A stretch of 27,944 nucleotides of DNA from Patescibacteria group bacterium (GCA_018901555.1 JAHIER010000057.1:1-27944), one strand, 5' to 3'; positions 8,231 through 27,944 are shown, numbered from the stretch's first letter. A program made the numbers and translations. The notes: generated by a model from the letters alone, not told the origin.

Positions 8231-9295
8231 ATGAAAAATAAAAAAGTTTTGATAGCTATGAGTGGCGGAGTGGATAGTTCTGTTGCTGCTTATTTATTAA
8301 AAAAAGAAGGTTATAATTTAACCGGAGTATTTTTTGATTTGGGGCAGATTAATTGTCAAGCATCTTTAAAAAGCGCTGAAAAAACGGCTAAAAAAATTGG
8401 CATTCCTTTAAAAAAAATAAATCTGCGCAACCAGTTTAAAAAAATGGTTATAAATAAGTTTTTAAGTGAATTTAAAAAAGGCAATACGCCTAATCCTTGC
8501 GTGGTTTGCAATAAAAAAATTAAATTTGAAAATCTTTTGAGCTTGGCGAATAAAATGAAGATTAATTATATTGCGACCGGACACTACACAAAGCCCCACA
8601 AAGGTTTAACCTTTGTAAAATTACTACTGGCAAAAGATAAAACGAAAGATCAGAGTTATTTTTTATATAATCTTAATCAGAAAATTTTAAGCAGGACAAT
8701 TTTCCCATTAGGAAATTTAATCAAAGAACAGGTTAAAAAAATGGCTGATAATTGGAAACTGCCTTATTTAAAAAAAGAAAGTCAGGATATTTGTTTTTTA
8801 AAAGGAGATCATAATAATTATTTGAGAAAAAATCTAAAAAAAATAAAGTTGGGCAAAATTGTTGATAGTCATAGTAAAATTTATGGAACTCATTGCGGTT
8901 TGCCGTTTTATACTATTGGCCAGAGAATAGATTTGGGAGGATTACCAATTCCGTATTATATTGTAGCTAAAAATAGAAAAAGAAATTTATTAATAATTGC
9001 TAGTCTGGTTGAAGAAAAAAAATACTGGAAAAAAGAAGTAAAAATAAAAAATGTAAATTGGATATCTGGTAAAGCGCCGAACTTGGACATTAAATGTCCA
9101 AGTGGACATTTAATGTCCAAGTTGTTAAAAGCCCGTATCCGTTACCGCCAGCCACTTGAAAATTGTAAATTAAAAATTGAAAATTCTAAAAACTATTTTG
9201 TAACTTTTAATAAACCTCAAAGAGCTGTAACCTCGGGGCAATCACTAGTCATTTATAAGGGTCAAGAATTAATCGGTGGCGGAATAATTATATGA
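8231..9295 (+). CDS. mnmA: tRNA-specific 2-thiouridylase MnmA
   Basis: AMSGGVDSSV, TPNPCVVCNKKIKF, IATGHY, KDQSYFL, ESQDICF, YTIGQR, QRAVTSGQ. Confidence 0.97.
   Translation: MKNKKVLIAMSGGVDSSVAAYLLKKEGYNLTGVFFDLGQINCQASLKSAEKTAKKIGIPLKKINLRNQFKKMVINKFLSEFKKGNTPNPCVVCNKKIKFENLLSLANKMKINYIATGHYTKPHKGLTFVKLLLAKDKTKDQSYFLYNLNQKILSRTIFPLGNLIKEQVKKMADNWKLPYLKKESQDICFLKGDHNNYLRKNLKKIKLGKIVDSHSKIYGTHCGLPFYTIGQRIDLGGLPIPYYIVAKNRKRNLLIIASLVEEKKYWKKEVKIKNVNWISGKAPNLDIKCPSGHLMSKLLKARIRYRQPLENCKLKIENSKNYFVTFNKPQRAVTSGQSLVIYKGQELIGGGIII
8597..8616. repeat. In-frame palindrome CACAAAGGTTTAACCTTTGT in mnmA (HKGLTFV)
   Basis: Identical to leuS 2553-2572 and read in the same frame. Confidence 0.95.
9081..9122. 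repeat. 42-nt double palindrome in mnmA (GGACAT-N3-ATGTCC x2)
   Basis: ACTTGGACATTAAATGTCCA-AG-TGGACATTTAATGTCCAAGT: 20-nt perfect arms, each half itself palindromic. Confidence 0.95.
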
Positions 9296-10182
9296 AAAAA
9301 GTAAGGGCTTTGGTTTTATTTTCTGGCGGGTTGGATTCTATTTTAGCTGTTAAAGTTTTAGAGGAACAGGGGATTGATGTGACTGCGGTGAATTTTGCCA
9401 GCTATTTTTTTGATAGTGAACAGGCTAAAAAATCAGCCGAAGAAAATAATATAAAATTAAAAATCATAAAAAATAAATTTCCTCAATATCATTGGCAGAT
9501 TGTAAAAAACCCAAAATACGGTTATGGACGCGCTATGAATCCATGCGCTGACTGCCATTTATTAATGGTTAAAAAGGCAGGAGAAATTATGAAAAAAGGC
9601 AAATATGATTTTTTAGCTACCGGAGAAGTTTTGGGGCAAAGAGGATTTTCTCAAAACAAAAATGCCTTGAAAAATATCGAAGAACATTCTGGCATAAAAG
9701 GAAAACTGTCAAGGCCATTAAGCGCTGGATTATTAAAACCAACAGAAGTTGAAAATTCAGGTTTAGTTAATAGAGAAAAACTTTTTAATTTTAGCGGTAA
9801 GGGCAGGAAGAGGCAGATTGAATTGGCAAAAAAATTGAAAATAAAATATTATCCCTCACCAGCTGGAGGTTGTCTTTTAACTGACAAAGAATTTGGCCAT
9901 CGTTTAAAATTAATGATGGAAAATTTTGGAGCAGATGATATTGTTGTTTCAGATTTTGTTTTATTGAAATTCAGCCGTCATTTTTGGTTTGATAAAAATT
10001 TAATTATTGTTGGTAAAAATAAAGACGAAAATAACAGATTAAAAAAATTAAAACAAAAAAACGATATTTTATTAAGACCAGATTTTCCCGGTCCGAGCGT
10101 TTTAATAAGGGGAAGAAAAATTAATCAGGGAATAATTGAAGAAGCTCAAAAATTAATTAAAAAATATTCTAAAAAGATGTGA
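9292..10182 (+). CDS. ThiI/MnmA-like PP-loop (adenine nucleotide alpha hydrolase) putative tRNA thiolase, without THUMP domain
   Basis: LFSGGLDS, MNPCADCH, ATGEVLGQR, PAGGCLLTD, C-terminal IIVGKNKDEN (DUF814/NFACT-R-like); ATGA overlap with mnmA. Confidence 0.82.
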   Translation: MKKVRALVLFSGGLDSILAVKVLEEQGIDVTAVNFASYFFDSEQAKKSAEENNIKLKIIKNKFPQYHWQIVKNPKYGYGRAMNPCADCHLLMVKKAGEIMKKGKYDFLATGEVLGQRGFSQNKNALKNIEEHSGIKGKLSRPLSAGLLKPTEVENSGLVNREKLFNFSGKGRKRQIELAKKLKIKYYPSPAGGCLLTDKEFGHRLKLMMENFGADDIVVSDFVLLKFSRHFWFDKNLIIVGKNKDENNRLKKLKQKNDILLRPDFPGPSVLIRGRKINQGIIEEAQKLIKKYSKKM

Positions 10183-10201
10183 TTTATGTTATTGTAATTT
10201 T

Positions 10202-11983
10202 ATGATATCAAGGGAAATCAGAGATAAATTTTTAGAGTTTTTTACAGAAAAAGGGCATACTGTGATTTCTTCAGCTTCTTTGATTCCAAGCGAAACTGAT
10301 CCAACCGTGCTTTTTACAACGGCTGGCATGCATCCTCTAGTGCCATATCTTTTGGGAGAAAAACATCCGGGCGGAAACAAAATTGCTAATGTTCAAAAAT
10401 GTATCAGAACAGTTGATATTGATGAAGTAGGCGACATTAGTCATCTTACTTTTTTTGAAATGCTGGGAAATTGGTCATTTGGATCTTATTTTAAAAAAGA
10501 GGCTATTGAATGGAGTTGGAAATTTTTAACTGCTCCTAATTGGCTGGGACTTGATCCTGATAAAATTGCAGTTTCTGTTTTTCAAGGAGATGATAATGCT
10601 CCTTTTGATGAGGAATCTTACGAAATTTGGGAAAAAACCGGACTTTCTAAAAAAAGAATTGCTAAACTTCCTAAAGAAAATAATTGGTGGGATTCTCCTG
10701 GCGCAACAGGGCCTTGCGGGCCTGATACGGAAATGTTTTATTGGATGGGTAATTCAGAAAAAGCTCCGGAAACATTTGATCCTAATGATAATAACTGGCT
10801 GGAAATCTGGAATGATGTTTTTATGCAATATAATAAAATAGCAGAAGGACGCTACGAACCTTTAAAACAAAAAAATGTTGATACTGGAATGGGGTTGGAA
10901 AGAATCGCCATGGTCATGCAGGATGTTTCAACTGTTTATGAGACCGATTTATTTTTGCCGATCATGAGAAAAATTGATGAGCTTGGACATTTGATGTCCA
11001 ACGGGACATCGGATGTCCTTAGGTCAAAAAGAATTATTGCTGATCATATTAAGGCTGCGGTTTTTATAATTTCTGATGAAGTAGAGCCGTCAAATACCGG
11101 CCGTGGTTATGTGTTAAGAAGATTAATAAGAAGGGCAATAAGACATGGAAAATTATTAGGTATTGAAAAATTTTTTATAAATAAAATAGCCGAATCTGTA
11201 ATAGATATTTATAAAGAGCAATATCCTGAACTATTGAATAATGAATTAGAAATTATGAATGAATTAGAAAAAGAAGATGAAAAATTTAGAAAAACTTTAG
11301 ACCAAGGCATAAAAGAATTCAATAAATTAAAAGAAATTACTGGTAAAGATGCTTTTAACTTGTATCAAACTTATGGTTTTCCTTTTGAAATGACAAAAGA
11401 GATAGCAACAGAAAAAGGAATAGAAATAAATGAAACAGAATTTAAAGAAGAGTTTAATCTCCATCAGGAACTTTCTAAAACCGCATCTGTCGGCATGTTT
11501 AAGGGCGGATTGGCTGATTCTGGCGAGCAATCAAAAAAATATCATACAGCAACACATCTGCTTTTGTCAGCCCTGCGTCATATTTTAGGAAATCATGTTG
11601 AGCAAAAGGGAAGTAATATTGATTCCGAGCGCATGCGTTTTGATTTTTCTCATTCGCAAAAAATGACTGAAGAAGAAATTAAAAAAGTTGAAGATATAGT
11701 TAATGAAAAAATTAAAGAAAATTTGCCAGTATCCTGTGAAGAAATGAATTTAGAGGAAGCAAAACAAAAAGGCGCTTTAGGATCTTTTGAGCAAAAATAT
11801 CTTGCCTGCCGGCAGGCAGATGGTGATAAAGTAAAAGTGTACTCAATAGGGTCTTTTAGTAAGGAAATTTGCGGAGGACCTCATGTTGAAAATACTGGCG
11901 AGATTGGTGATTTTAAAATTATAAAAGAAGAAGCCAGTTCAGCTGGCGTGCGCAGGATTAAGGCAATTGTGGAAAACTCTTAA
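10202..11983 (+). CDS. alaS: Alanine--tRNA ligase (short, 593 aa; lacks C-Ala domain)
   Basis: TVLFTTAGMHPL, HLTFFEMLGNWSFGSYFK, DTGMGLER, GRGYVLRRLIRRA, editing HTATHLL and EICGGPHV; ends just after GVRRIKA. Confidence 0.98.
   Translation: MISREIRDKFLEFFTEKGHTVISSASLIPSETDPTVLFTTAGMHPLVPYLLGEKHPGGNKIANVQKCIRTVDIDEVGDISHLTFFEMLGNWSFGSYFKKEAIEWSWKFLTAPNWLGLDPDKIAVSVFQGDDNAPFDEESYEIWEKTGLSKKRIAKLPKENNWWDSPGATGPCGPDTEMFYWMGNSEKAPETFDPNDNNWLEIWNDVFMQYNKIAEGRYEPLKQKNVDTGMGLERIAMVMQDVSTVYETDLFLPIMRKIDELGHLMSNGTSDVLRSKRIIADHIKAAVFIISDEVEPSNTGRGYVLRRLIRRAIRHGKLLGIEKFFINKIAESVIDIYKEQYPELLNNELEIMNELEKEDEKFRKTLDQGIKEFNKLKEITGKDAFNLYQTYGFPFEMTKEIATEKGIEINETEFKEEFNLHQELSKTASVGMFKGGLADSGEQSKKYHTATHLLLSALRHILGNHVEQKGSNIDSERMRFDFSHSQKMTEEEIKKVEDIVNEKIKENLPVSCEEMNLEEAKQKGALGSFEQKYLACRQADGDKVKVYSIGSFSKEICGGPHVENTGEIGDFKIIKEEASSAGVRRIKAIVENS
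10983..11018. repeat. Double palindrome in alaS (GGACAT-N3-ATGTCC x2)
   Basis: TTGGACAT-TTG-ATGTCCAA (10983-11001) and GGACATC-G-GATGTCC (11004-11018). Confidence 0.92.
11803..11818. repeat. Perfect 16-bp palindrome TGCCTGCCGGCAGGCA in alaS
   Basis: GC-rich self-complementary 16-mer within an apparent 7-aa insertion (LACRQAD). Confidence 0.9.
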
Positions 11984-20459: not shown

Positions 20460-20544
20460 AAGCCTCGGTTTTCCCGGGGCTTTTTACTTGGGGGTTTCAC
20501 CCCCAAGTCCTTGTATTTGTTGACGTGGCATTGGGAAAATGATA
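20460..20544 (+). repeat. Composite element copy 1: terminator hairpin + U-tract + 23-nt palindrome ACTTGGGGGT-TTC-ACCCCCAAGT + promoter-like tail
   Basis: AAGCCTCGG-TTTTC-CCGGGGCTT then TTT (20460-20485) terminates rpsI; palindrome 20486-20508; CTTGTATTT 20510-20518; GGAAAATGATA 20534-20544. Homologous to 21072-21147. Confidence 0.92.
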
Positions 20545-21071: not shown

Positions 21072-21147
21072 AAGCCTCGGCAAAACCGAGGCTTTTTACT
21101 TGGGGGTGAAACCCCCAAGTTCTTGTATTTTTGGCTGGAAAATGATA
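21072..21147 (+). repeat. Composite element copy 2: terminator + 23-nt palindrome ACTTGGGGGT-GAA-ACCCCCAAGT + grpE promoter
   Basis: AAGCCTCGG-CAAAA-CCGAGGCTT then TTT (21072-21097); palindrome 21098-21120; CTTGTATTT 21122-21130; GGAAAATGATA 21137-21147. Confidence 0.92.
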
Positions 21148-27910: not shown

Positions 27911-27944
27911 TGTCAACGTGGCACGTTGACGTGGCAGGTTGACA
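27911..27944. repeat. Palindromic / 13-bp tandem motif at window edge
   Basis: GTCAACGTG-G-CACGTTGAC perfect inverted repeat (27912-27930); tandem ACGTGGCACGTTG / ACGTGGCAGGTTG; ends in TTGACA. Confidence 0.75.

Follow-up and report, generated by a model that had tools for sequence, protein, structure and literature searches.

The stretch of DNA analyzed here, to which we refer as the window, is a 27,944-nucleotide (nt) contig of a Patescibacteria group bacterium (GCA_018901555.1 JAHIER010000057.1:1-27944), namely, contig C82 of an 84-contig, 525-kb assembly (34% G+C, 85% complete). Two genes in the window, mnmA, which encodes the tRNA 2-thiouridine synthase, and alaS, which encodes a short alanyl-tRNA synthetase (AlaRS), each contain, in frame, a doublet of the palindromic motif GGACAT-N3-ATGTCC. 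In all likelihood, these doublets are translated elements of the repetitive extragenic palindromic (REP) type, more specifically, of the kind in which two REPs in inverted orientation form a longer hairpin (REPIN), and belong to a system that resembles those of the REP-associated tyrosine transposases (RAYTs). The features in question are the following:

Positions 9081..9122, no strand given: REPIN-like inverted doublet of the GGACAT hairpin family in mnmA, translated as N284-K297 of MnmA.
Positions 9081..9103: unit 1 of the mnmA doublet, a complete 23-nt hairpin, ACTTGGACAT-TAA-ATGTCCAAGT, with a 10-bp stem and a 3-nt loop; exact match to the ACTTGG-N11-CCAAGT frame.
Positions 9103..9122: unit 2 of the mnmA doublet, TGGACAT-TTA-ATGTCCAAGT, the reverse complement of unit 1, without a left foot of its own.
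Positions 10982..11020: degraded doublet of the GGACAT family in alaS (units at 10983-11001 and 11003-11018), translated as L261-L273 of AlaRS.
Positions 8231..9295, plus strand: mnmA, tRNA 2-thiouridine synthase, 354 amino acids (Pfam tRNA_Me_trans plus M and C domains, E = 5e-65).
Positions 10202..11983, plus strand: alaS, short AlaRS, 593 amino acids (Pfam tRNA-synt_2c and tRNA_SAD, E = 4e-141).

The four GGACAT-N3-ATGTCC sites start at positions 9085, 9104, 10985, and 11004; there is no other site in the window, nor does an additional one appear when two mismatches are allowed, and 100 dinucleotide shuffles of the window contain none (mean 0, maximum 0). This confirms the original prediction, which was made from the window alone, that such doublets lie in frame in both genes; its description of positions 9081-9122 as a 42-nt palindrome with 20-nt arms and a 2-nt centre is likewise accurate, the arms being perfect and the centre reading AG. 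Each half of this palindrome is itself a hairpin with the 7-bp stem TGGACAT/ATGTCCA and a loop that reads TAA in the first half and TTA in the second. The distance between the starts of the two units, originally put at about 19 nt for alaS, is exactly 19 nt in both doublets because two 23-nt units have a 4-nt foot in common. The encoded peptides, NLDIKCPSGHLMSK in MnmA and LGHLMSNGTSDVL in AlaRS (alaS 10982-11020), are those previously proposed, with the sole correction that the former is encoded by positions 9080-9121, the mnmA palindrome being 1 nt out of register with the codons. The alaS doublet has perfect GGACAT/ATGTCC arms but non-complementary loops (TTG and CGG) and degraded bases at its outer foot. 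Folded as a single DNA strand, the mnmA doublet is predicted to form one 20-bp hairpin (-20.6 kcal/mol, z = -11), and the predicted energy for the alaS doublet is -13.6 kcal/mol (z = -6.4); in both cases, none of the 200 shuffles was as stable. In a search of Rfam, neither doublet was assigned to a family, and the matches below threshold were chance ones.

Across the genome, there are 11 exact GGACAT-N3-ATGTCC sites and, with variants included, 12 loci of the family in 525 kb. The full unit is 23 nt long and conforms to ACTTGGACAY-N3-RTGTCCAAGT; in the variants GGACAC..GTGTCC and GGAGAC..GTCTCC, the pairing is kept via changes on both sides of the stem. The loci comprise eight or nine close pairs and three single units. 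Nine of the 12 are located inside open reading frames (ORFs), in frame, and seven of the host genes have strong Pfam matches, to LigA (NAD-dependent DNA ligase), Fmt (Met-tRNA formyltransferase), Tgt (tRNA-guanine transglycosylase), MetRS, an IleRS-type synthetase, MnmA, and AlaRS. Among these hosts, the hairpin DNA is read in three frames (GHLMSK, LDIKCPS, and WTLNVQ) and in both orientations, and the frames stay open. Because the three reading frames yield unrelated peptides, the identity among the copies lies in the DNA rather than in the protein. This observation bears directly on selection at the protein level, whereby GHLMS-type peptides would be a functional motif gained convergently by MnmA and AlaRS: although GHLMS is indeed common to these two tRNA-handling enzymes, the same DNA yields other peptides elsewhere, the identity extends to synonymous positions, and the peptide is absent from 96 of the 120 MnmA homologues and from most AlaRS sequences, so that this explanation is almost certainly wrong. 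Thus, the genome-wide search for the motif and the comparison of orthologues both came out in favor of the original prediction: further copies of the element exist, and the peptides are missing from most homologues of the two proteins.

The likely partner of the GGACAT family is encoded on another contig of the same assembly:

Contig C75, positions 1441-2076: gene for a Y1/HUH enzyme of 211 amino acids (Y1 gene of the GGACAT family), with hairpins at 1398-1420 and 2082-2104.

The hairpin ACTTGGACATTTAGTGTCCAAGT is present 21 nt upstream of the start codon of this gene and again 6 nt past its stop codon. Such bracketing recurs in the genome, which contains 15 matches to PF01797 (Y1_Tnp): 10 of the 14 Y1 genes with flanks that were examined have their own multi-copy hairpin family just outside the start and the stop, and often also within the ORF. 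In 38 sequences, the HUH histidines (H80 and H82) and the tyrosine (Y140) do not vary. The AlphaFold model of the C75 protein (predicted local distance difference test score, pLDDT, 84.9) has as its best fold match in the Protein Data Bank (PDB) 4er8_A, TnpA-REP bound to a REP hairpin (E = 6e-7, template modelling score 0.67 by target), followed by the TnpA proteins of IS608 and ISDra2, and the only NCBIfam match of the Y1 proteins is NF047646, 'REP-associated tyrosine transposase' (24-42 bits). The 14 paralogues show a maximum pairwise identity of 81%, with most pairs in the range of 40-63%; therefore, the Y1 genes are not copies of an insertion sequence (IS). An IS200/IS605 element was accordingly considered and rejected, given that there are no near-identical gene copies and that the same hairpin, instead of distinct ends, is found on both sides. 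More than 4,600 homologues of the Y1 proteins were detected; where source names are given, these are mostly Patescibacteria 'transposase', and some are named RayT by the Joint Genome Institute (JGI). Among the 31 related genomes searched, 23 contain Y1 genes and 16 contain the ACTTGG-N11-CCAAGT frame, for which the reversed control pattern gave 0-1 matches.

The closest paralogue of the C75 enzyme, 72% identical, is encoded on contig C81, and in this ACTTGG clade (C75 and C81) the hairpins on both sides of the gene have the same orientation. In addition, a hairpin of a sister family (TGGAGAC) lies in frame inside the C75 gene (1887-1909, L046) and at the same alignment position in the C81 paralogue; the C81 gene (L089) carries in-frame hairpins at 438-460 and 718-738; and five other Y1 paralogues contain their own hairpin in the loop that precedes the HUH strand.

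Besides the GGACAT family, the genome harbors many hairpins of the same general form. There are 156 perfect hairpins with a 3-nt loop and 8 or more base pairs in the stem, compared to 10 in one shuffle, and 13 families of at least three perfect units hold 100 such units, with 3-14 perfect units per family. The stems of further families include CGGAAAC, CCGACCC, TGGAGAC, CAAACAC, GCAACAT, CCAAGGG, and TGGGGGT, and other feet, ATGTC...GACAT and TGTGC...GCACA, are found as well. Of the 100 units, 66 are inside ORFs (46 host ORFs altogether), 31 are intergenic, and the remaining 3 are located at the edges of genes, these fractions being approximate because the ORF calls were simple and crude (91% coding). 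Genome-wide, 11 of the 14 close pairs are inverted, as is characteristic of REPINs. Within families, the orientation of single units relative to the host strand leans to one side (for example, 8:3, 7:1, and 6:1), the numbers being small, the majority class picked post hoc, and the contigs too short to set this lean against the direction of replication; no conclusion is based on it.

The original prediction described the doublets as operator-like or as similar to REPINs and to bacterial interspersed mosaic elements (BIMEs). The latter part of this alternative is supported by the dispersed family, the predominance of inverted pairs, and the bracketed Y1 gene, whereas the former fared poorly. Tandem operators, that is, double-stranded sites for a dimeric, palindrome-recognizing regulator, would fit the perfect dyad symmetry as well as the fixed spacing of the units in both genes, but this spacing already follows from the common foot of the 23-nt units. 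Furthermore, 9 of the 12 loci are deep inside unrelated coding sequences and not at promoters; the dozen families have different sequences built to one design (a 10-bp stem and a 3-nt loop), and individual Y1 genes are flanked by their respective families; and the compensatory changes that keep the pairing are the mark of a folded single strand. An operator function of the doublets is, therefore, very improbable. The variety of families also speaks to another candidate explanation, DNA-uptake-type signals or genome 'self' marks, which are short, over-represented, often arranged in inverted pairs, and allowed in genes. Patescibacteria are thought to depend on imported DNA, and the hairpins are, indeed, short motifs dispersed inside coding regions. 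Uptake signals proper, however, come as one motif of high abundance that is conserved across a lineage, whereas the hairpin families are low in copy number, numerous in one genome, different between close relatives, and specifically associated with Y1 genes, which makes this explanation scarcely credible.

Evidence on the history of the doublets comes from related genomes. The nearest available relative, L093 (Logan SRR22387953), retains the gene order of the window across the mnmA-alaS region, except for two additional genes, and lacks the doublet in both genes: with closely similar flanks, its proteins read ...DL-KTIY-KARIR in MnmA and ...EL-SSKDDTK-SKRI.. in AlaRS. A PaaX/Cas2-like gene that had been proposed as the source of the cognate protein was set aside, being a syntenic neighbor in L093 as well, where no ACTTGG-type hairpins are present in the 9 kb read. 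Relative to the unoccupied sites of L093, the net gain in the window is 10 residues in MnmA and 6 in AlaRS, so that a clean 14-codon insertion was discarded in favor of replacement within a variable loop; the original term 'inserted' needs to be qualified to this extent. The short, unoccupied form of the MnmA loop is found in 96 of the 120 best homologues and in most of the 28 related genomes, and the AlaRS site is unoccupied in most of the 28 as well. Both doublets fall within length-variable loops of their proteins, in agreement with the prediction: the AlaRS site is the variable loop that separates the DLF.PI motif from R(I/V)IADH, and in the AlphaFold model of MnmA (mean pLDDT 92), the insert is modelled as a beta-hairpin (strands 286-288 and 294-296, local pLDDT about 82-84) of the C-terminal barrel.

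Two other relatives, L090 (GCA_017973895.1) and L091 (GCA_041643235.1), contain a GGACAT doublet at the same places in both mnmA and alaS; in a third, L092, mnmA contains only one unit, and the alaS site, which has no unit, is filled differently. The identity of the doublets to those of the window, set against that of the host genes, is as follows:

mnmA doublet, window compared to L090 and L091: 40/42 nt; rest of the gene, 65-66%; third codon positions, 47-50%.
alaS doublet, window compared to L090 and L091: 33/39 nt; rest of the gene, 69-71%; third codon positions, 51-54%.

The excess conservation of the mnmA doublet is significant (P about 7e-6), and the 8 differences between the alaS doublets of the window and L091 are all located in loops, spacer, or foot, so that the 24 stem bases are untouched (P about 0.002 in a test chosen post hoc). 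Between L090 and L091 themselves, the mnmA doublet (38/42) is no better kept than the gene (85%). The mnmA doublet of L091 is the exact reverse complement of that in the window, as can be told from the centre, CT versus AG, the only asymmetric bases. The alaS doublet, which L090 and L091 also possess, is an older member of the family that has partly decayed and no longer has an outer foot.

Further afield, the same MnmA loop turns out to be a site of recurrent change. In other genera, this loop contains units of other families (cores GGAAAC, GGACAC, GGGAGC, and others), and in one genome (G017), the doublet is located 9 nt further upstream, its removal restoring the plain ...ISGAPNLLKARIR. In a tree of 119 MnmA sequences, constructed with the insert columns left out, the REP-type inserts are all contained in a single clade of 33, of which 12 rows have an insert; the tree as a whole requires no fewer than seven gains or losses, and the sister sequence of the window has no insert. 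A comparison at closer range is afforded by L094 (JGI 3300027921) and G011, in which mnmA is 89.8% identical outside the doublet. The doublets differ at 10 of the 42 positions, and these amount to five mirrored pairs, which affect, in each arm, the foot, the stem, and two positions of the loop; the G011 doublet consists of the hairpin that brackets the Y1 gene of G011 itself. Judging from these alignments, the doublet was replaced as a unit, or else one arm was copied from the other; independent point mutations would not give this pattern. Some relatives without REP units have other fillings in the same loops, namely, a SQISNLKS-like low-complexity peptide and KIKNQN-like runs (AlaRS of L050, L054, and L066; MnmA of L011 and L013), which look like a different short-repeat family at the same permissive sites.

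These comparisons invite the question of what the hairpins do, as distinct from what they are. It is to the former that the next alternative pertains: the hairpins could be kept for a function, either as a structure used by the Y1 enzyme or another factor, or as one that paces replication, transcription, or translation. The degree to which the mnmA doublet is conserved above its host gene, the confinement of the alaS differences to positions outside the stems, the occupation of the same MnmA loop in several genera, and the Y1 genes that contain their own hairpin at recurring positions within reading frames are all compatible with such retention. Yet most homologues, the sister sequence included, manage without the element and keep a short loop; the host genes are unrelated, and the hairpins occur in all three frames and both orientations; the L090 and L091 doublets are no more conserved than the gene around them; and the swap of one family for another is as compatible with turnover from an active pool as with constraint in place. 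Hence, we consider retention for a function unlikely. The conservation of the stems and of the doublet as a whole points either to constraint in place or to repeated refreshment from an active pool, between which the data do not discriminate. A more far-reaching proposal, which can be put forward only tentatively, is that MnmA residue 284 and the AlaRS loop before RIIADH are fixed landing pads, where RAYT-type enzymes repeatedly excise, flip, and replace hairpin cassettes. The hairpin would then stay pristine while the gene diverges, and small beta-hairpins of housekeeping proteins would be rewritten in the process, possibly to the benefit of the cell or of the enzyme; this part of the proposal is equally tentative.

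In the interpretation of the doublets as REPIN-type elements, each consists of two inverted copies of a 23-nt REP-like hairpin, the family of which is paired with the Y1/HUH enzyme encoded at C75:1441-2076. By analogy with the biochemistry of TnpA-REP and IS608 (PMC3333891, PMC3479197, PMC8266576), the enzyme would bind the folded hairpin on single-stranded DNA, cut at the hairpin foot, and join the hairpin to another site, possibly next to ACTT; in L093, ACTT borders the unoccupied alaS site on the left, which is only a hint of a target motif. With so little intergenic DNA, most landings would be in genes, and those that survive would be the ones that leave the frame open, introduce no stop codons, and fall into tolerant surface loops. 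The hairpin DNA would then be translated as an extra loop, which in MnmA is the predicted beta-hairpin. The mobility of the doublets and their mobilization by the C75 enzyme are thus what we infer from the characterized systems.

The resemblance to the REP/REPIN-RAYT systems, such as E. coli TnpA-REP with its REPs and BIMEs and the REPINs of Pseudomonas (PMC3116915, PMC3333891, PMC2817692, PMC8266576), includes the short palindromes in many dispersed copies, the inverted pairs that can fold into a longer hairpin, the non-IS Y1/HUH gene bracketed by the same repeat, the presence of several enzyme/repeat pairs per genome, and the best fold match to 4ER8; REPs that are perfect palindromes comprise one of the recognized groups (PMC8266576). 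There are differences in scale and architecture. The spacer between units is 0-3 nt, the whole doublet is about 40-48 nt long, and each family has 3-14 perfect units; there are 15 Y1 genes in about 0.5 Mb compared to 1.3-1.8 RAYTs per replicon (PMC5581495); and the Y1 proteins, at about 210-250 amino acids, score far below the NCBIfam cut-off for RAYTs and are encoded by genes that contain hairpins of their own. Intragenic REPs have precedents: in the study of Di Nocera et al. 2013 (PMC3733652) and the papers on Rickettsia palindromic elements (RPEs) cited there, palindromic repeats, frequently dimers that encode 20-30 residues, were found in frame in known genes, including those for tRNA synthetases, DNA ligase, and repair proteins, and were read by Di Nocera et al. 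as tolerated insertions in permissive regions. In those genomes, however, REPs were mostly intergenic and the intragenic ones a minority; here, it is the intragenic copies that predominate, and a given protein loop is taken up by one family in one lineage and by another elsewhere. No dedicated transposase is known for the long RPE-1 elements, in contrast to the bracketed Y1 gene described here. With IS200/IS605 elements (IS608 and ISDra2), the system shares the Y1/HUH enzyme and subterminal hairpins recognized on single-stranded DNA, along with the same-orientation flanks of the ACTTGG clade; it departs from them in that no pair of Y1 genes exceeds 81% identity, the hairpin has one and the same sequence on both sides of the gene, and only the hairpin, without the gene, is dispersed.

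Several observations weigh against the assignment of the doublets to a REP/RAYT-type system and have to be set beside these similarities. First, the described REPs carry a GTAG or CGTC tag at one end (PMC3733652), which is absent here, the conserved foot being ACTT...AAGT, and, unlike the REPs of Proteobacteria, two thirds of the units are located inside reading frames (9 of the 12 GGACAT loci and 66 of the 100 units genome-wide), contrary to the extragenic location implied by the name. Second, judged by sequence, the Y1 proteins are distant relatives of the characterized RAYTs: the NF047646 scores of 24-42 bits fall short of the cut-off of 80 for the curated equivalog, and a single-sequence search of the PDB with the C75 protein produced no match, whereas the profile search gave only weak ones (E = 0.02-0.08), so that the link to TnpA-REP is drawn from the fold search and the sub-threshold NCBIfam match. 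Third, the exact hairpin variant at the C75 gene, with a T-G wobble, has only three copies, so that the assignment of this enzyme to the mnmA and alaS doublets rests on family resemblance. Fourth, the mnmA doublet is 95% identical where mnmA is 65% identical, and the changes in the alaS doublet avoid the stems; a purely neutral relic would behave otherwise. Finally, movement was not observed: the closest available relative is 64-68% identical in MnmA (the best MnmA homologue among 5.8 billion proteins being 64% identical), no close relative with a clean occupied/unoccupied polymorphism was found, and at this distance, there is no strain-level presence or absence, exact junction, or target duplication to be read. 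On the whole, the system is of the REP/RAYT type in a variant form: it belongs to Patescibacteria, is tagless and two-thirds intragenic, shows turnover at a fixed site, and lies outside the curated RAYT equivalog.

So far, REPs and RAYTs have been studied almost only in Proteobacteria, where the repeats are extragenic by name and there is usually one enzyme per genome. A search of the literature, which is incomplete and thus does not prove absence, found no paper on REP/RAYT systems in Patescibacteria, also known as the candidate phyla radiation (CPR), and neither the survey of HUH enzymes (PMC6006769) nor that of RAYTs (PMC5581495) mentions these phyla. Here, a half-megabase genome, 91% of which consists of ORFs, accommodates 15 enzymes and about a dozen hairpin families; intergenic space being nearly absent, two thirds of the hairpins are located in frame in genes, including those for several tRNA synthetases and DNA ligase. 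The result is a natural catalogue of the loops in essential enzymes that tolerate 7-16 extra residues, and it accounts for many of the 'odd insertions' and repeated peptides in proteins of Patescibacteria with which annotation and alignment pipelines are confronted. A loop that is occupied, flipped, or re-occupied by another family across related lineages, with a hairpin far better conserved than the host gene, also provides for a clean test of the persistence of REPIN populations, and the perfect 23-nt substrates and small enzymes are well suited to biochemical study of how HUH enzymes choose their hairpins.

Some of the other hairpin families have members in the window, too. The CAAAGGT-TTA-ACCTTTG family, with six copies in the genome, occurs in frame at 2555-2571 in leuS and at 8599-8615 in mnmA. 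The latter position corresponds to a second variable loop of MnmA, between the ATGHY and KDQSYFL motifs; this loop is plain in L093 and contains other REP-type or low-complexity inserts in relatives. The hairpin ACTTGGGGGT-N3-ACCCCCAAGT, which has the ACTTGG...CCAAGT foot in common with the GGACAT family and five perfect copies in the genome, is present in two intergenic copies of opposite orientation, at 20486-20508 and 21098-21120. Short GC-rich palindromes with at least three genome copies, at 1405-1420 in leuS, 11803-11818 in alaS, and 27913-27929 (TCCGCCAGCTGGCGGA, TGCCTGCCGGCAGGCA, and the TCAACGT family), probably represent more REP-type families. Elsewhere in the genome, there are mixed doublets, in which units of two families adjoin (C41:4163-4200, L041, in the Tgt gene; C34:5981-6033; and C58:1731-1783), an arrangement that suggests preferential landing of hairpins at those already resident. 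Between mnmA and alaS in the window lies a gene (9292-10182) for a ThiI/MnmA-like PP-loop protein, identified as such by the Pfam matches of its counterpart in L093; this gene is not found in L090, L091, and L092, where alaS directly follows mnmA.

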